A stretch of 64,000 nt of DNA from Candidatus Falkowbacteria bacterium (GCA_016927685.1 JAFGMD010000021.1:21913-85912); one strand, 5' to 3'; numbered from the stretch's first letter, positions 2,364 to 58,912 are shown. The notes: a model not told the origin generated them from the sequence alone. Numbers and translations are program-made.

Positions 2364-4166
2364 ATGCTAAATTCACAAATTGAAGAAATAAAATCAAAAA
2401 TTGATATTGTTGATTTGATCTCCGAATACACTGCTTTAAAGCCAGCTGGAACTAATTGGAAAGCGCGCTGTCCGTTTCATAATGAAAGAACACCGTCTTT
2501 TATGGTTTCGCGAGATAAGCAAATTTGGCACTGTTTTGGTTGTGGCGAAGGCGGAGATATTTTTGAATTTGTGCAAAAAATAGAGGGTATGGAATTTTCT
2601 GAGGCTTTAAGGCATTTAGCCGAGAAGGCCGGAGTAAAATTAAAGAAAGTTGACCCTGCCATTGTTTCGCAAAAAACTAAATTATTAGATATTCTTAAAG
2701 TAGCCGCTGAATTTTTTCATTTGTCTTTATTAAAAACCCAAGAAGGCAAAATTGGTCGTGATTATATTGAAAAACGAAATTTATCTCAAAAAACAGTTTC
2801 TGATTTTAAAATTGGTTATGCGCCTGATTCTTGGGACAAGCTTTTAAATTTTTTAATTAAAAAGGGTTTTAAGCAAAACGAAATTTTACTTTCTGGCATG
2901 GTTATAAAGAACGAAAAGGGGCAATGTTATGACCGTTTTAGGTTAAGATTAATGTTTCCGATTTTTGATCAGCATGGTGCTGTTGTTGGTTTTACCGGCA
3001 GAATTTTAAATGAAGAAAAGCAGGATCAAGGCGGTAAATATGTAAATACGCCGCAAACAACGATATATAACAAGAGTTTGGTAATTTATGGTTTAGATAA
3101 AGCAAAAAATGAAATAAAGAAAAAAGATTTGGCAGTTATTGTTGAAGGCAATATGGATGTAGTCGCCTCTCATCAAGCTGGCATAACTAATGTAGTGGCT
3201 TCATCTGGGACTGCTTTAACGCAAGAACAACTTAAATTGTTAAAGCGCTATACAAATAATATTGCCTTATCATTTGATGCTGATTTGGCTGGTCAAGCTG
3301 CTGCAGAAAGAGGAATTGATGCAGCGTTGGCTTTGGGATTTAATATTAAAATTATTCAGTTACCTAAAGAAATAAATGGCAAATCCATAAAAGACCCCGA
3401 TGATTGCATAAAACAAGGTCAGGAATTTTGGCAAAAAGCCATAGATTCAGCAATTTCTATTATGGATTTTTATTTTGATAAAGTTTTTTTAAAATATAAC
3501 AAGGATAATCCAGAACAACGCAAGGAAATAGCCAATAAACTCTTTAAGCAAATAGCTAAATTGCCGGATTTAGTGGAGCGGGATTTTTATCTGACAAAAT
3601 TAGCTCAAAAACTGGATGTTCCTGAGAATATTTTAAGAGAGGCCTTTCATCCTTTTAATGACTCAAAGCAAAAAAATACTAATGAAGAAACTCTCTTTAA
3701 TAAAAAGAAAATTGATAGAGAAATAATGTTGGCGAGGCAATTAGTAGCCATAATTTTAAAATATCCCCAAAACCTTGATTATGTAATTAGTCATTTGGAG
3801 GTAGAAACATTGCCCGATTCGCAATTACAGCAAATTTACAGGGAAATTATTTTATATTATAATGATAAGAAGGAGTTTGATTATTCTCAATTTGAAAAAA
3901 TATTATCAGACAAGACCAAAGAATTACTCAACCCAACTTCTACCTTGTTGCTATTAGCTGATAAGGATTTTTTTGATTTTACAGATGATCAAATAGAAAG
4001 AGAATTAATTAATATTGTTTCGGCTTTAAAAAAAGATTATATTAATAAAAAATTAAAACAGGTGCAAATGCTGATTGCTCAGGCGGAAAAACAAAAGAAT
4101 AAACAGCAAATCGAAGAACTGGCCAAGGAATTTTCAATCTTAACTTCAAAATTAAACAACTTATAA
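2364..4166 (+). CDS. dnaG: DNA primase DnaG
   Basis: CHC2 zinc finger ([34 protein letters not shown]) and a TOPRIM region ([16 protein letters not shown]); the length is typical of DnaG. Confidence 0.9.
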
Positions 4167-4171
4167 TATTT

Positions 4172-5401
4172 ATGCCTAAAAAAACAAAGAAAAAATTTTC
4201 TTCTAAAGTGAGAAAAATAAAAAAACTGCGTCCTAAAAAGAAATTAGGCAAGAAGGCTAAAAAAGCAGGCAGAAAGAAAAAAGCAGGCAGAAAGGGCAAG
4301 CGCGAAATAAAGAGGCCAACGGATGATCAATTAAATTTGCTTTTAGCCAAGGGCAGAAGTCGTGGTTTTGTGACTGAGCATGAATTATTAATGACCTTTC
4401 CTGAAGTTGAAGATTATATTGATACATTTGAAAAGTTTTTAGATATTTTAGACCAAAATAGCGTACAAATAGTATCTTTAAAAGGCGGAATGTTAATGAA
4501 AAGCAAGGAAAAAGATGAAGCACTTGGCAAAACAAGCACCGGCAAGGAAAGAAAAAAAATTGAATTAGCAGACATTAGCAGTGAAGATTCAATCCAAATG
4601 TATCTTCGCGAAATCGGTAAAGTCCCGCTTTTAAAAGGTGAGGAAGAAATGGCTTTGGCGCGCCGAAAAGATAAGGGTGATCAAGAAGCAGTAAAAAAAT
4701 TAATAGAAGCTAATTTGCGCTTAGTTGTGTCTATCGCCAAAAAATTCGTGGGAAAAAACATGTCTCTGCTTGATTTGATTCAAGAGGGTAATATGGGTTT
4801 ATTTAAAGCAGTAGAAAAATTTGACCCTAGCAAGGGCTATAAGTTCTCAACTTATGCTACTTGGTGGATAAGGCAGGCCATTACCAGATCTTTGGCTGAT
4901 CAATCAAGGACAATAAGAATTCCAGTCCATATGGTGGAAACAATAAATAAATTCCAGCAGGTCCAAAGGCGTTTAATTCAGGATTTGGGTCGCGAGCCAT
5001 TGCCAGAAGAAATTGCTGCTGAAATGGGGGAAGACGTAGAAAAGGTTAGGCATATTATTAATATTTCACAAGAAACAGTGTCATTAGAAACATCAGTGGG
5101 CGAGGATGAAGATGATTCAACATTAGAGGACTTCATTGAAGATGTAAAAAATATGGCGCCAGACCGTTCTGCTGCTTTACAGCTTTTAAGGGATTATGTT
5201 AAAGAAATTATCAGCGAATTATCACCTAGAGAGCAAAAAATATTAGAAATGCGCTTTGGTTTAACTGACGGCGTAGCTCATACCCTAGAAGAGGTTGGAA
5301 AGGAATTTGATGTGACTCGCGAACGTATCAGACAGATTGAAGCCAAGGCATTAGAAAAAATAAAAATGCATCACCAGATTGAAAAATTAAAAGATTTCTA
5401 A
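4172..5401 (+). CDS. rpoD: RNA polymerase sigma-70 factor RpoD with a Lys-rich N-terminal extension
   Basis: Region 1.2/2 ([44 protein letters not shown]), region 3 ([13 protein letters not shown]) and a region 4 HTH ([23 protein letters not shown]). Confidence 0.9.
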
Positions 5402-43468: not shown

Positions 43469-43477
43469 AATAAAAAG

Positions 43478-44200
43478 CCCCACATTTTATGTGAGGCTGT
43501 AAATTCGCCGGTGAGGAGGTTGCTTGGCATCCAGATTACTCTGGACGAGCATAGAGTTCTCTTGGTGCTTGCCGAAGTGGACCCGAGAATCTATCCTCGC
43601 TTTGATATCCGAGTACTTTTCTATCGCAAGCCCTGACAAATTTCCCTGGACATCTCTGGCGGCATCGAAGTCCAGACACATACCGTGCATTTCTACGTTC
43701 GTCAACGTAGTTGAGCGTAGCCATTTGGCCTTGTAAAACCCCTGCACTAATACATGCCCAGAAAGCCACCCTCTCTCCTCCTCGATCTGTAATAAACATT
43801 AACAAACGAATAAAATAATGTCAAATAAAAAGCCCCACATTGCTGCAGGGCTGAATTTACAAATGATTGGAAGGGTTAGAACAGCATTGCTGAACAACAA
43901 TGCCGACGGCGACCAAATGGGTCTGCTCCTAACCTGACGTTTTTATAATGGCTCGGTCAGCGCCCTTTGTCCATCCAACCATTTACCTGATGGCAAGTCG
44001 TGGGAGAGGAAAGGCTTTGGAAAGAAAAGGCAGTTATTGCCCTTGCGTATTTCAACGCAAATTTCCTTCTTTTCTGCCCAGATGCTCTTGCCAGCTTACT
44101 AGGCAGTATTCCCACTTCAGGATTTGAATAATGATGATCGCTACCAAGGACAAAGCCCATGGGAGTGATGCTAATAAAATATCAAATGGATCAGTTTTTG
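43478..44200. other. GC-rich (about 48%) segment with no credible ORF; contains two terminator-like hairpins sharing the head aaaaagccccacatt
   Basis: Only short overlapping ORFs in several frames (43487..43747-, 43524..43736+, 43536..43805-, 43957..44160-) with implausible composition. aaaaagccccacattttatgtgaggct at 43475 and aaaaagccccacattgctgcagggct at 43831. Confidence 0.4.
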
Positions 44201-44207
44201 TCAACAT

Positions 44208-48142: not shown

Positions 48143-48328
48143 ATGGCAAAAAATAAACTTAATTATTTTGCGTTACCATTTGCCGAGGAAAATCAATGGC
48201 TAAGGTTAGAATGCCCTAATTGCGAATCCAGTGCCTATAAAAGCTCAGAAGAGGAGACTCAACAGGGTACCCAAACAATATATACCTGCACAAAATGCCA
48301 AACGAAATTTAGAAATCCCAAAAAATAA
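48143..48328 (+). CDS. small zinc-ribbon protein
   Basis: CPNC...CTKC, an RBS aaaaaggaggat and its own intrinsic terminator (aaaaccgctccaactggggcggtttt). The start was moved to ATG 48143. Confidence 0.4.
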   Translation: MAKNKLNYFALPFAEENQWLRLECPNCESSAYKSSEEETQQGTQTIYTCTKCQTKFRNPKK

Positions 48329-48431: not shown

Positions 48432-48635
48432 ATGTCTGAAATGCAGGGAGGAAAAATGCTGAAAGCTGTGTCTCTGAAGAGCCAAACTAAAATAGGCATC
48501 TTGAAAAAAGGCGAAACAAAATGCCCATTTTGCGGAGATCAGATCTATTATCACCATGCAACTGAAGAAAAGGATGCAGAAGGCAGACAAATTATTGTCT
48601 GTACTGGCTGCTACAATAAGTATGTGGAAGTTTAA
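48432..48635 (+). CDS. small zinc-ribbon protein
   Basis: CPFCGD...CTGC, an RBS aggaggaggg and a terminator (aaaaccgccctccgcgacacggagagcggtttttt). The start was moved to ATG 48432. Confidence 0.4.
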   Translation: MSEMQGGKMLKAVSLKSQTKIGILKKGETKCPFCGDQIYYHHATEEKDAEGRQIIVCTGCYNKYVEV

Positions 48636-54178: not shown

Positions 54179-55579
54179 TTAATTATTTGTCGCAATTGTT
54201 GCGGTTGGAATTAATAAGTCCAAATTTTCACCCTGCGGATGTAAGCTCAAGACTTTATCAGTCACGTCAAATATATCTGTCCAGCTATAACCTAAGGATA
54301 TAAAAGTATTTTCATTAGCAACCCAGCGACGCTGACCATTAGAAATTACATATACCTTGGGATCGCTAGGACTTTTTATTAAAATACCGTCACGAATTTT
54401 TAAGCCGTTAGCTGCTGTAACATATTTATCAAGTTCTTCGGTAGTGACTTTAATAGTGCTGTATTTTTTATTGTAATTAATATTTAAAACATCTTTTGAC
54501 CAAATAGGATATTTTATGCCATCTTCAACATAAAATACACCCCCCGTTTTTGAATCCTGAAGCAGAGCGCCCTGTGGATATAAGCTAGTAAGTGTTATTT
54601 TTCTACCCTCCAAATAATAGCCAAGCTCTTCATCAGTAACATCTATGATCTCATCTGGATTATAACCTATAGCGCGAAAAACTTCATCTGATTCAATTTC
54701 CTTTTTTTCATTGCCGACAATTAAATATATTTTATTGGCAGGGGAGCGAAGTAATGAAAAATTAGCATACTTAATGGGATAGCCCTCTTCATATCTTAAT
54801 AAATCATTTTTAGAAATTTCAATAATTTTGGCATTGGCATAACGGCTGGTTAGGGCTAAATTAGACCAGAATAATCTTCGTTTGCCATTGGCTATTAAAT
54901 ATATTTTAGAATCGCCTGTTTGTTTAACGATTGTACCATCAGGGAAAATTTTAGCAAACCATCGATTCCAAATATTCCAAAAATTAAAATTACCATGCAG
55001 ATGTGGCGTATAATTATATAAATTTGCTGTTGATTGATTATAAGGAACTATTGTCTGATTATCAACTATACTGGATTTGCCTGGTAGAAAATTAAAGTCA
55101 GAAGCATGATCATAATAATATCTTATTCTCCAAGTACCGCGGTCAACTTGCGTGCCAAAACCCTTAAACATGGCAACTTGGGGGTCATCAATAGAACAAG
55201 AATCGCAAACTGCATAACCCATAGCCCAATCAATATTTTTTTGCGATGGAGTCGGATTTGTAATCAAGCTCTGTTCCTTTTGAAGTGTTGCTAAAATCCA
55301 TTTGGGATTTATTTTATATGTCTGGGCAGCATTAAAAATTATTTCAGCCGCTAATTTTTGAACACCATAATTATCAGGAGTTATAAGGCTTTTTAAAACT
55401 CCATTTTGGTTATTTAAAAATTCTGCAATAGCAGATAAATTCATGGACTGAAAATCAGTCAAATCTCCATCAGAAATAATATCATTTGGATCAAATTCAA
55501 AAGCCAAAAGCTGGCCAAATGGCGCTAAAATAAAACTTATAACAACAATAAAAATAATAATTTTATGATAAATTTTCAT
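54179..55579 (-). CDS. secreted putative peptidoglycan hydrolase (glucosaminidase-like N-terminal region) with 3-4 C-terminal repeats of about 45 aa
   Basis: A signal peptide. INPKWILATLQKEQSLI resembles the glucosaminidase motif. The repeats are KIYLIANGKRRLFWS..., KIYLIVGNEKKEIES..., KVYVISNGQRRWVAN.... Confidence 0.4.
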   Translation of the reverse strand: MKIYHKIIIFIVVISFILAPFGQLLAFEFDPNDIISDGDLTDFQSMNLSAIAEFLNNQNGVLKSLITPDNYGVQKLAAEIIFNAAQTYKINPKWILATLQKEQSLITNPTPSQKNIDWAMGYAVCDSCSIDDPQVAMFKGFGTQVDRGTWRIRYYYDHASDFNFLPGKSSIVDNQTIVPYNQSTANLYNYTPHLHGNFNFWNIWNRWFAKIFPDGTIVKQTGDSKIYLIANGKRRLFWSNLALTSRYANAKIIEISKNDLLRYEEGYPIKYANFSLLRSPANKIYLIVGNEKKEIESDEVFRAIGYNPDEIIDVTDEELGYYLEGRKITLTSLYPQGALLQDSKTGGVFYVEDGIKYPIWSKDVLNINYNKKYSTIKVTTEELDKYVTAANGLKIRDGILIKSPSDPKVYVISNGQRRWVANENTFISLGYSWTDIFDVTDKVLSLHPQGENLDLLIPTATIATNN

Positions 55580-55712
55580 ATATTATATTTTATCATAAAT
55601 TCATGCTTCTTTCAATAAATAAAAAGATCGCCTGCATAATTACGGACCTAACCCTCTAACCCCGGATTCAGCGAAAGCTGATACCGGGGTCTTTTTCTAT
55701 CCAAAAAATATT

Positions 55713-55742
55713 TTGACATATTCTTTTACTATTGCTAATATA
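55713..55742 (+). promoter_or_regulatory. sigma-70-like promoter (TTGACA -N18- TAATAT) driving the candidate ncRNA
   Basis: ttgaca at 55713-55718 and taatat at 55737-55742, with no ORF downstream. Confidence 0.45.
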
Positions 55743-55749
55743 TTTTTAC

Positions 55750-56113
55750 GAGGGAATATGTCTGTGAAAAATAGCTCGGTTTGCTAGCGACAAAGAGCGA
55801 AAAGGCCATCCAATTGAAATACGCATTAACACTATGTGGCAGAAATGTCAGGTGGATGCGTTCCTCATGAAAAAATTGTGGGGTGGTGCCATACCCTGCG
55901 TACTGCACTGAGCGAGGTGCGCGGGAGCAAACCTGCCCATGATGCCGAAACCCCCATGTTTCTCGTTTTGCGGGACCGCATGCCAACGGGAACCTAGGGC
56001 GGCTGTCGCCACGTGCCTAGTTATGGGACCGGAGAAAAAAGCTCTGTTTTTACAGACTACCTCAAGTCGTGCCCCGGCGAGTTATGTACAAACTTGCCGG
56101 GGCCTTTTTTATT
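55750..56113 (+). ncRNA. candidate structured ncRNA of about 360 nt (unclassified), GC-rich, bounded by a promoter and a strong intrinsic terminator
   Basis: No ORF longer than 25 codons on the plus strand. The only track ORF (55735..55986 minus) has an implausible composition. The terminator is ccccggcgag-TTATGTACAAA-cttgccgggg + ccttttttatt (56071-56113). No tmRNA, RNase P or SRP motifs were found. Confidence 0.3.
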
Positions 56114-56202
56114 GACAAAAAGAGTTATATTTGTTAAGCTGCCAATAATAACAGTGAGCTGACCTGGCATATAGGATGCTATGGGAACGGCTCGCCCCTC
56201 CA

Positions 56203-56245
56203 AGCCCCGCTTTCACTGATCATGATTGCGGGGCATTTTTTATTT
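56203..56245 (+). terminator. second plus-strand intrinsic terminator, ending a possible ~100-nt transcript that starts after the ttgaca at 56112
   Basis: ccccgc-TTTCACTGATCATGATT-gcgggg + cattttttattt. Confidence 0.4.
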
Positions 56246-56290
56246 AAAAATTAAAAAAGAAACGGATTTACCGCTTCTTTTTTGTTTTAT

Positions 56291-58912
56291 TTATTTAAAA
56301 ACTACTTTATCTTTTATAACATCCACTCTAACCTTTTGCCCTTCTTTTATCTTGCCTTCAATAATTTGCAAGGCTAAATCATCAAGAATTTGATTTTGAA
56401 TCACGCGCTTGAGCGGGCGAGCGCCAAATTGGGGATCAAAACCCTTATTAGCCAAATATTCTTTAAGCGCTTCTGTAAAATCAACTTTAATTTTTTTATC
56501 CAATAATCTTTTTCTGACAATTTCCAACTGCAATTCAATAATTTTTTCGATTTCTTTTTTTGCCAGAGGATGAAAAATAATTATTTCATCCAAACGATTA
56601 ATAAATTCCGGCTTGAAATGCGACTTTAAAGCTTCATTAACTCGTTCTTTCATTTTCTCCTCATCAACTTTTTCATTTGTTCTGACTGACTTATCTTCAA
56701 AACCAAGAGTAACTTCTTTTAAAAGCTGATTGCCTAAATTAGAAGTCATAATTATAATAGCATTTTTAAAATTTACTATTCGGCCCTTGGCATCAGTCAA
56801 ACGGCCATCATCAAGTAACTGCAACAGAATATTAAAAACCTCTGGATGAGCTTTTTCAATTTCATCAAATAAAACCACAGAATATGGACGTCTACGAATC
56901 TGTTCAGTTAATTGTCCGCCTTCATCATAGCCAATATAACCGGGAGGGGAGCCAATAAACTTGGAAATAGAATGTTTCTCCATATATTCTGACATATCCA
57001 CGCGAATCATGGCATCTTCATCACTAAACATAAATTCTGCCAAGGCCTTGGCTAATTCAGTTTTGCCTACGCCGGTTGGGCCCAAGAAGATAAATGAGCC
57101 AATTGGCTTATTTTCCTCGCCAACGCCTGCGCGTGAGCGTCTAATAGCGTTTGCCACGGCTGAAATGGCCTCTTCCTGGCCAATTACGCGCTTTTTTAAC
57201 TCATCTTCAGCGTGAGCAAGCTTAGCCATTTCTGATTGCAGCATTTTGGAAACAGGAATGCCTGTCCAGCGAGAAACAACTGCCGCTATATCTTCCTCAG
57301 TTACTTCTTCTTTTAATATTTTATTTTCTTTTTGAATGAGGGCTAATTTTTTTTCTAAAGACTTGATGTCTTTTTCCAAAGCCGGAATCGTGCCATAGCG
57401 AATTTCTGCAACTTTTTGCAATTCTGATTTTCTTTCCAAAATATCTGCTTCTTGTTTTAGAGAATCAATTTTCTTTTTAGCCTCGCGGATTTTTGTAATA
57501 ATTTCCTTTTCATTTTTCCAGTGTAATTCCAATTGGTTTGATTTTTCTTTCAAATCATTCAGTTCCTTATTTAGATTTTTCAAATTTTCTTTGGCCTCTT
57601 TTTCTGATTCATTTTTTAGCGCGGCTTTTTCGATTTCCAACTGTTTAATTTTTCTTTTCATTTTGTCCAAATCTTCGGGCATAGAATCAATTTCCATGCG
57701 CAAGGCCGATGTTGCTTCGTCAATCAAATCAACTGCCTTATCAGGCAAAAAACGATCGGTGATATAGCGCTGTGAAAATTCAGCTGCTGCAGTAATTGCT
57801 GAATCAGTAATTCTCACACCGTGATGAACTTCATATTTTTCTTTAATGCCACGCAAAATGGCAATCGTATCTTCAATTGACGGCTCTAAAACCATAACCG
57901 GTTGAAATCTGCGTTCTAGGGCCGGATCTTTTTCAATATGTTTTTGATATTCTTTCAGGGTTGTTGCGCCAATGGCATGCAATTTACCGCGAGCCAAAGC
58001 AGGCTTTAACATATTAGAAGCATCCATCGAGCCTTCGATAGCGCCGGCGCCCACTACAGTATGCAATTCATCTATAAATAAAATAATCTGGCCATTGGAA
58101 TTTTCTACTTCTTTTAAAACAGCTTTTAATCTATCTTCAAATTCACCACGAAATTTTGTACCTGCTATCAAAGATCCCAAATCCAAAGCAATCACTTCTT
58201 TATTTTTTAAAGTTTCCGGCACATCACCGGCTACAATTCTTTGTGCCAGGCCTTCGGCAATAGCAGTTTTGCCAACACCTGCTTCGCCGATTAAAACCGG
58301 GTTATTTTTTGTCCTGCGAGAAAGTACTTGCATAACACGTCTAATTTCAGAATCACGGCCAATAACGGGGTCTAATTTTTCCTGTCTGGCCATCTCAGTT
58401 AAATTTTGCGCGTATTTTTCTAAAACCTGAAATTTTGATTCTGGCTCGGGATCAGTTATTCTGGTTGAACCGCGTAATTGCGCTAAGAGCTTTAAAACCT
58501 CGTCATATTTAATTTCAAAACTTTCCAAAAGCGTTTTAACTTTGGATTTAGTATTGAGCATGGAGAGAAATAAATGCTCTGTAGAAATATATTCATCCTT
58601 GAGATCTTTAGCTTCTTTTTCACTTCCAGCTAAAATGCGCGCCAAATCTTCAGTTAAAAACATCTGGGTTAAATTAACTTCAACCTTGCTTTTAGGCATT
58701 GATTCAATGGCACGCGAAATTTCTTTTTTTAAATTTGCCGCTTCTACTTCCAGCTTTTTTATAATAGTCAAAACCAAGCTGTCTTCTTGAAGTAATAGAG
58801 CAGCGAGTAAATGCAGAGCATCAACTTGCTGATTATGATTGTCAACAGCTATTTCTTGCGCGTGGCGCAAAGCCTCCTGCGATTTTGTAGTAAATTTGTT
58901 TATATTAAACAT
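56291..58912 (-). CDS. clpB: ATP-dependent chaperone ClpB
   Basis: Two AAA+ modules ([15 protein letters not shown]; [15 protein letters not shown]), a long middle coiled-coil domain, and 873 aa. Confidence 0.9.

Follow-up and report, generated by a model that had tools for sequence, protein, structure and literature searches.

A candidate gene for a large structured non-coding RNA next to clpB in Candidatus Falkowbacteria

The transcription unit between clpB and its neighbouring gene

The DNA analysed here is a stretch of 64 kb (the window) from a metagenome-assembled genome of Candidatus Falkowbacteria, a member of the CPR/Patescibacteria. Two genes of the - strand enclose the region of interest: one encodes a 466-aa protein (54179-55579) that is identical to NCBI JW977_03035, and the other is clpB (56291-58912). 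The 711-nt gap between the 466-aa gene and the end of clpB holds a transcription unit, named unit 1, which lies on the + strand and is convergent with clpB; from its end at 56111 up to clpB the ORF listing contains no + strand gene. The array of units is bounded by the bidirectional terminator of clpB (56253-56283, - strand); this element and a third hairpin at 55660-55689 had been missed in the preliminary description of the locus.

The promoter of unit 1, located at 55713-55741 by a promoter scan, is composed of TTGACA, a 17-nt spacer and TAATAT, with a TG two bases ahead of the latter hexamer (TG-n-TAATAT, an extended -10 element). The near-consensus hexamers had been described before, with a spacer of 18 nt that has to be corrected to 17. 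The window contains eight sites of this quality that include the TG, while about 1.3 would be expected according to Markov shuffles; they therefore represent the promoter type of the organism, the unit 1 site being among its best examples. The same promoter is kept in a related genome, L016. If transcription starts about 7 nt past the -10 hexamer, the unit 1 RNA would extend from 55748 to 56111 (+ strand) and be about 365 nt long. The intrinsic terminator (56071-56111) consists of a hairpin at 56071-56103, with 13 pairs (9 G-C) and a 7-nt loop, followed by a T-run, and bears out the terminator first reported; it is kept in L017, a genome that carries a full-length orthologue of unit 1 and whose neighbouring 466-aa protein is 81% identical. 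The body of unit 1 has a GC content of 57-61%, compared to 34% window-wide, and no other 200 nt of the window are as rich in GC as the segment 55880-56079 (0.60 versus a mean of 0.344, SD 0.059). The earlier picture of a GC-rich, promoter-to-terminator unit thus stands, and unit 1 can be treated as a predicted independent + strand transcription unit of about 365 nt.

The same description had stated that no ORF exceeds 25 codons, which is not the case: there are ORFs of 53 and 58 aa on the + strand and of 83 and 54 aa on the - strand, none of them gene-like. Frames are open in several phases and on both strands, in unit 1 as well as in the L017 orthologue, as is expected because the sequence is GC-rich. 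It is extremely improbable that the region codes for one or more small proteins, even though ORFs of 53-83 aa are present and the 58-aa one has an ATG with GGGAG 11 nt upstream. In fact, open frames on both strands argue against coding, and the 58-aa ORF differs from its L017 counterpart by five non-synonymous and only one synonymous codon change, distributed 6/1/1 over codon positions 1/2/3 and hence mostly at position 1; it also crosses the terminator hairpin. L017 lacks the GTG with which the 53-aa ORF starts, a Pfam search returned no match, and gene callers applied to an independent Logan assembly, SRR13394437, in which the identical contig occurs, predicted no gene at unit 1.

Predicted fold, conservation and the family of tandem units

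The predicted fold of unit 1 is more stable than that of shuffled sequences, with z = -3.67 on the + strand and -1.98 on the - strand, and it includes many G-U pairs that are compatible with the + strand only. It is multi-branched and almost fully paired, it is closed by a long-range helix after which the terminator follows, and the most conserved parts of the sequence lie inside it. The closing helix, P1, was obtained with RNAalifold from unit 1 and the L017 orthologue and joins GUCUGUGAAAA at 55760-55770 to UUUUUACAGAC at 56047-56057 (both + strand). Among its 11 pairs, two are changed on both sides between the sequences (A-U to U-A and A-U to G-C) and one goes from G-U to A-U; an outer extension, read from the sequence, would pair GAGG (55750-55753) with CCUC (56060-56063). 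P1 is followed on the 5' side by a short helix, H1 (55774-55798, + strand), formed by GCUC (55774-55777) and GAGC (55795-55798), whose loop bears the conserved GCUAGCGACA. Next come an A-rich junction strand and the start of the following helix, GAAAAGGCC (55799-55807, + strand), for which the family consensus is RAAAAGGCS, and a GAAA-capped hairpin, UGGCA-GAAA-UGUCA (55837-55850, + strand), with compensatory changes against L017. The most conserved core extends over 55866-56042 (+ strand), with four substitutions against L017 in the 140 nt of 55903-56042.

All 92 of the 92 pairs predicted by RNAalifold are standard pairs in both sequences, and each of the 15 paired columns that carry a substitution stays pairing-compatible. 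Changes on both sides affect four pairs, two in P1 and two in the GAAA-capped hairpin, where another pair is altered on one side. When partners are slid by one to three columns as a control, pairing falls to 35-45%; a shuffle control is weak, as 27 of 500 shuffles reach the observed values and only two sequences are compared. Moreover, these figures refer to a fold predicted from the same two sequences that serve to test it and in which most helices are invariant. At the sequence level, core columns 64-293 are 92.6% identical to L017, compared to 76.6-79.7% for the flanking coding DNA. A third orthologue was sought through ClpB homologues and was not found, the closest match being the other contig of the L017 genome. 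The claim of a structured non-coding RNA is therefore borne out by a fold more stable than that of shuffled sequences, by pairs kept with compensatory changes and by a core conserved above the flanking genes. The comparison of clpB-linked loci that had been proposed as a check for covariation gave, besides the four compensatory pairs from one orthologue, a covarying H1 over five units, as described below. Unit 1 thus has two of the features by which non-coding RNA genes are generally recognised, namely its own promoter and terminator and a conserved structure, with a power that is limited by the single orthologue.

Syntenic loci were fetched from seven related genomes with the 466-aa neighbour as anchor (neighbour identity 61-82%), and the range of the family is known only from these seven genomes reached by synteny. 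Five units in four genomes belong to it: unit 1 of the window, L017_u1, L017_u2, L001_uB and L016_uX. They align in a 5' module that reads (G/A)UGC-UA-GNNC-(loop with GCUAGCGACA)-GNNC-RAAAAGGC(G/C) and is followed by a hairpin, which is GAAA-capped in all but one of them; none of the five departs from AAAAGGC. H1 takes the complementary forms GCUC/GAGC, GCCC/GGGC, GCAC/GUGC and GUCC/GGAC, with a C-A mismatch in L001_uB, and covariation is seen at three of the four pairs. The GGCG of three paralogues is complementary to, and pairs with, a CGCC directly ahead of the 3' strand of their closing helix (...CGCC-CU-GCAC..., read from the sequence), and these RNAs would therefore form a three-way junction with the strands UA, RAAAA and CU; in unit 1 itself, the GGCC next to the A-rich strand has an ambiguous partner. 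The GAAA-capped hairpin recurs at the same position in L017_u2 and L001_uB, with GAAG in L016_uX. Loop hexamers remain palindromic though their sequence changes (GCUAGC in three units, GCAUGC in L016_uX), a pattern that hints at self-association through kissing loops. The remainders of the RNAs differ among the paralogues.

With a covariance model built from the 5' module, the five units, which also served to train it, score 68-91 bits, and nothing else exceeds 17 bits in 159 kb. With this model, no relation to the family is detectable for L001_uA, L013_u2, the units of L015, L019 and L021, or a second locus of the window. This second locus (44204-43470, - strand) contains two further units of about 330-350 nt, so that at least three large units are found within 64 kb. 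A metagenome pattern scan with a 20-nt 5' motif gave nine matches, all by chance and in GC-rich or coding DNA; in viral contigs the module pattern gave 15 chance matches in coding DNA, and a 22-nt core none.

In all relatives, what separates clpB from the 466-aa gene is a variable island of small autonomous cassettes, located on the strand equivalent to the + strand of the window. Cassettes start with a TTGACA-type promoter, or with a -10-like element in the two most distant relatives (L025 and L027), and end mostly with a GGCCCCG...CGGGGCC hairpin and a T-run. Some of them consist of a small ORF and its AAGGAGG ribosome-binding site; others lack ORFs, are rich in GC and 150-520 nt long, and their 5' and 3' ends pair just ahead of the terminator. 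Units occur in tandem in L001, L016 and L017: the latter two have two family members side by side, and L001 has one (uB) flanked by two further units.

Traces of this turnover are also visible in the window. The segment 55625-55695 (+ strand), named unit 0, is the decayed 3' end of a unit with its terminator (hairpin 55660-55689 and T-run), and it aligns with the 3' end of L016_uX, with which it shares CGCC-UGCA, CGGAC, ACCCUC, the terminator and the spacer up to the next TTGACA. L016 has a complete uX upstream of its unit 1 copy, of which the window retains the last ~70 nt; a deletion of about 330 nt appears to have removed the promoter and body of unit 0.

Downstream of unit 1, a second unit of about 100 nt had been proposed from a TTGACA and a hairpin with T-run. 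Both elements are there, but the -10 hexamer is weak and there is no comparative support for a separate gene. The putative promoter (56112-56140, + strand), read from the sequence, combines TTGACA (56112-56117), a 17-nt spacer and TAAGCT (56135-56140), which is the best second hexamer available, matches three of six consensus positions and is unlisted by the promoter scan. Unit 2 itself (56147-56245, + strand; fold z = -2.93) would consist of a hairpin at 56154-56195, unpaired CCCUCCAA at 56196-56203 and a terminator hairpin at 56204-56234 with its T-run, the two together lying at 56204-56241. Over its last 60 nt it is 80% identical to the 3' end of L013_u2, a unit of 285 nt, BLAST found no homologue for its first 50 nt, and it is probably a 5'-truncated copy of a longer unit type.

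The relic hypothesis, according to which the region is non-functional GC-rich DNA (a decayed mobile element, an intron fragment or horizontally acquired DNA), has in its favour that the island is highly variable and contains decayed copies. It is nevertheless very improbable, given that conservation of the unit 1 core exceeds that of the neighbouring coding DNA, that all helix substitutions are pairing-compatible and that promoter and terminator signals are of host type. Moreover, intron and mobile-element RNA families are unmatched, and a BLAST search of the intergenic region against the whole window gave AT-rich noise only, with no repeats, terminal repeats, template/variable-repeat pairs as in diversity-generating retroelements, or antisense targets.

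A closing helix that adjoins a terminator is also found in OFF-type riboswitches, and small ORFs follow on the same strand in L013, L015, L017, L019 and L021; unit 1 might accordingly be read as a cis-acting leader (riboswitch or attenuator), whose terminator controls read-through to downstream units or small ORFs. This is very improbable, though by a shade more likely than the relic hypothesis. No + strand gene follows in the window or in L001, and each downstream unit or small ORF has a TTGACA promoter of its own. The length of 365 nt exceeds any known aptamer, no riboswitch family matched, and an alternative antiterminator pairing, looked for by eye, was not seen.

Another explanation, unlikely although the least so of the alternatives to a folded trans-acting RNA, is that the units are base-pairing regulatory sRNAs. 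They are orphan promoter-to-terminator units, and tandem sRNA paralogues are common in bacteria. The succession of a 5' hairpin, an unpaired stretch and a terminator predicted for unit 2 fits such RNAs, its CCCCUCC would mask the Shine-Dalgarno sequence GGAGG, as in the C-rich RsaE/RoxS, and the genes of the window do have strong AAGGAGG ribosome-binding sites. That the unpaired CCCUCCAA could mask Shine-Dalgarno sequences is a speculation drawn from the predicted fold, and no Rfam match to the RsaE/RoxS type was obtained for unit 2. Against the sRNA explanation, the 365 nt of unit 1 are almost fully paired, with the conserved parts inside the fold and no exposed seed, and BLAST found no extended complementarity elsewhere in the window. 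Unit 2 has a weak promoter and a 5' half without homologue, and the homologous C-rich stretch of L013, as read from the sequence, may be the 3' strand of a closing helix, in which case its exposure in unit 2 is a by-product of truncation.

Comparison with known RNA families

The size of unit 1 had suggested a divergent RNase P RNA or tmRNA, together with the option of a novel RNA. The Rfam search recommended at that stage was run, and no known family, RNase P, tmRNA, 6S and SRP included, was matched. With Rfam 15 at the gathering score, the whole window gave no match at unit 1; at E <= 10, the surrounding 901 nt and the 331-nt body returned terminator-like noise only, in a search that lists nothing below about 12 bits. 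Taken together, the Rfam searches of the window, the region, the isolated unit and eight related loci yielded nothing but tRNAs and terminator-like noise, and none of the ORF-less units of the relatives was matched.

RNase P RNA is among the known RNAs that come close to unit 1 in outline: it measures about 350-400 nt, is GC-rich in an AT-rich genome, is multi-branched with a GNRA tetraloop, and ends in a closing helix and then a terminator. The size and this arrangement of the 3' end fit a highly divergent RNase P RNA, diverged forms of which are known from CPR bacteria, and the E <= 10 limit would miss matches as weak as 5 bits. Such weak scores do occur, as 10 of 35 circular CPR genomes required RF00010 thresholds down to 5 bits (Lui et al. 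2021, PMC8172020). Searches of the window, the 901 nt and the 331 nt with RF00010 and RF00011 gave no match in unit 1. As matches below 12 bits are unlisted, the rejection of RNase P RNA rests also on topology and on comparative data.

A stretch of unit 1, GAGCAAACCUGCC, resembles the J11/12-P12 stretch of the E. coli M1 RNA, and is noted as a lead only. The best match to GGAAAGUCC, which is GAAAAGGCC without the conserved U, has two mismatches, the best match to ACAGAANNNGGCUUA has four, and both are misplaced; in fact, the positions of the best matches to CR-I (GGAAAGUCC) and CR-V (ACAGAA...GGCUUA) are not able to pair. The order of elements at the 3' end of RNase P RNA is P2', junction, P4', P1', P4 being a pseudoknot. 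In the unit 1 model the 3' strand of the inner helices lies at most 4 nt from the 3' strand of P1 (columns 294-295, then 300-310), and a P4 3' strand would therefore not fit in. The gene for RNase P RNA is single-copy and its core universally conserved, but at the locus next to clpB some of the genomes with a neighbouring protein 71-82% identical hold diverged paralogues, two or three apiece, and the relative L013, with a neighbour 73% identical, has a unit that the family model does not detect. Thus unit 1 differs from RNase P RNA by the absence of a model match, of CR-I and of CR-V, and by belonging to a multi-copy family that diverges fast among close relatives; we give an RNase P identity almost no credence, as little as the coding of small proteins.

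For tmRNA, ARAGORN reported in the window one tRNA-Asn, elsewhere, and no tmRNA; the best T-loop match in unit 1 has three mismatches, there is no CCA-type end, and Rfam gave no match. The absence of the conserved motifs of RNase P RNA and tmRNA, already remarked on in the preliminary description, was thus confirmed by a motif scan without any acceptable match. The suggestion of a divergent member of either family finds no support, in view of the missing Rfam and ARAGORN matches and motifs, the unfit P4 topology and the diverged paralogues and unrelated units of the relatives; the alternative of a novel RNA, named in the same place, fits best.

Among other candidates, SRP RNA was rejected, the best match to its domain IV motif having three mismatches and Rfam giving no match. 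The 6S RNA model was not matched either, and the fold of unit 1 is multi-branched. 6S RNA, which is abundant and stable, has in common with unit 1 the paired ends, a poor sequence conservation and sometimes two paralogues, but it forms a rod with a central bubble and measures about 180-200 nt, whereas unit 1 is twice as long. Of the resemblances picked up by eye, a tRNA interrupted by a group I intron was dismissed for want of a T-arm and an acceptor end. The elements of a T-box (GGGUGGUGCC) and of a cobalamin B12-box (GAGC..ACCUGCC) stand in the wrong order, with the models unmatched in both cases. A hammerhead-like three-way junction was set aside because CUGANGA is absent, and a CsrB-like sponge because the seven GGA counted by hand, with about five expected, lie outside loops.

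The large orphan RNAs OLE, GOLLD, ROOL, raiA and HEARO are like unit 1 in being stand-alone genes of several hundred nt with an ornate fold, a narrow range and an unknown role, and the palindromic hexamers of the family (GCUAGC, GCAUGC) would permit a self-association such as occurs in some of them. Their models matched neither the window nor the eight related loci. Unit 1 is smaller than GOLLD, ROOL and OLE, its family consists of tandem diverged paralogues with their own promoters, and it has no associated protein gene, unlike HEARO (IscB) or OLE (ole-associated proteins). In its organisation, the family resembles the Qrr, RsmX, LhrC and PrrF arrays, which are arranged head-to-tail, with a promoter and an intrinsic terminator for each copy, a conserved module with divergent remainders and a varying copy number. 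These RNAs are 70-150 nt long and act with short exposed motifs, in contrast to the 365 nt of unit 1, which are almost entirely paired; GGA-loop repeats or an exposed seed were not found in unit 1.

Proposed nature of the RNA and its meaning

We consider it probable that unit 1 is a true gene with a transcription of its own, that it encodes a highly structured RNA of about 365 nt, non-coding, belonging to a tandem family and acting in trans through its fold, and, as part of the same judgement, that the family is undescribed and restricted to a small clade of Patescibacteria around the Candidatus Falkowbacteria genome. According to this explanation, a sigma-70-type consensus promoter would start the transcript and the intrinsic terminator would end it. 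The two ends of the RNA would pair in a long helix just ahead of the terminator, and the paired ends may be expected to protect both termini and to favour a stable RNA. Family members would share the 5' module (closing helix, UA, covarying GCUAGCGACA hairpin and RAAAAGGC), with a remainder that seems to diverge fast, and would stand in tandem between clpB and the 466-aa gene, each one with a promoter and a terminator. The family would evolve by duplication, divergence and deletion, and 55625-55695 and probably unit 2 would be decayed copies.

As to function, our best guess is an abundant and stable RNA that acts in trans through its fold, either as a protein-binding scaffold or as a self-assembling RNA. 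From the comparisons above, we infer that a trans-acting folded RNA is to be preferred over a housekeeping ribozyme, a cis-regulator or a simple antisense RNA. Stand-alone structured non-coding RNAs are as such a known kind of gene. The novelty lies in the family, in its organisation as tandem paralogues within a CPR genome and in how densely such units appear to be packed.

A broader and more tentative possibility, which we regard as appreciably less probable than the nature proposed for unit 1 itself, is that the clade has a repertoire of abundant structured RNAs of 300-500 nt, with several unrelated-looking families per genome, encoded in autonomous cassettes subject to tandem duplication and decay. 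The unit 1 family would then adopt a defined tertiary fold, built from a three-way junction with its invariant A-rich strand together with a GNRA and a palindromic loop. Its members might work as ribozymes, assemble with themselves or form a new kind of RNA-protein particle, and their role might lie in phage defence or in the episymbiotic lifestyle.

The genomes of CPR/Patescibacteria are tiny and leave little space for non-essential sequence, and to our knowledge their non-coding RNAs have hardly been explored. A large RNA that has a consensus promoter, is more tightly conserved than nearby genes and has been duplicated and reshuffled among close relatives suggests an active, lineage-specific RNA function, which current annotation misses entirely. 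GC-rich ORF-less stretches of CPR genomes should thus not be presumed to be the 'missing' RNase P RNA or tmRNA. Should the unit density of the window apply to the whole genome, such RNAs would constitute a notable part of the biology of these organisms, and they would offer new RNA folds to structural and functional studies.

The unit 1 family: loop hexamer and a remnant copy

The units of the family to which unit 1 (the ~365-nt candidate RNA gene beside clpB) belongs share helix H1, whose loop hexamer (55783-55788 in the window, with equivalent loops in the related loci L017, L016 and L001) changes in sequence yet remains palindromic: three units carry GCUAGC and L016_uX has GCAUGC, and the loop of L001_uB has GCGC. 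Such a palindrome would allow loop-to-loop self-pairing of these RNAs, as judged from sequence. A further member of the family has left its 3' remnant, terminator included, at 55625-55695 of the window; the full copy is intact in L016, and its promoter and body were lost here through a deletion of ~330 nt.

Other units in the islands of related genomes

Large units at the equivalent site in L015 (~3400-3910), L019 (~3580-3910) and L021 (~3400-3925), all on the - strand of the locus and 330-525 nt long, form a family different from that of unit 1; they have in common a conserved 3' hairpin (GCCGGCGUAGUGC...GCACAUAGUAUGCCGG) with some compensatory change, and each is closed by GUGUGGGGA/UCCCCACAC. 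Directly after the large unit, L019 (~3431-3580, -) and L021 (~3256-3400, -) carry an ORF-less unit of ~145 nt, 88% identical between the two and ending in a GGGCUC...GAGCCC terminator. Immediately beside the clpB stop, the overlapping contigs of L043 (7427-7540, -) and L017 (1-130, -) together give a ~90-nt unit with a consensus promoter, and its terminator also serves clpB.

Protein genes are found in the same variable island as the RNA units. Small hypothetical proteins of one family (~93-111 aa; both 93-aa members start with MNFTIDES...) are encoded, each from its own promoter, in L013 (3141-3422), L017 (139-430) and L019 (3041-3376), on the - strand of each locus; the window and L001 have no members of this family. 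In the distant relative L002, whose neighbouring protein is 35% identical, the island is occupied by a protein gene instead, accompanied by a GC-rich imperfect hairpin of ~75 nt (GGGGUGCCAUAGUCCCCGCC...GGCGGGGCUGUGGCACCCC; ~5290-5370, -), for which Rfam gave no match at gathering score.

A second tandem locus and small-gene cassettes in the window

The architecture of the clpB-side RNA locus recurs on the - strand at 43470-44204, where two promoter-to-terminator units of ~350 and ~330 nt lie in tandem, the first running from a TTGACA at 44204 to a terminator at ~43850-43825, and the second from TTGACA-17-TAATGT at ~43823 to a terminator at ~43496-43470. Their GC content is 46-48% and their folding z-scores are -3.4 and -3.7; neither Rfam nor Pfam matched them, and in sequence they do not resemble the clpB-side units. 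In the second unit GGAGG is followed 8 nt on by a GTG opening a 78-aa Arg/Cys-rich frame, and on these signals the unit may code for protein.

Two small zinc-ribbon-like proteins with CxxC pairs, of 61 aa (48143-48328, +) and 67 aa (48432-48635, +), are each encoded with their own TTGACA promoter, AAGGAGG ribosome-binding site and terminator, and small genes of this genome therefore seem to be normally laid out as single-gene cassettes.
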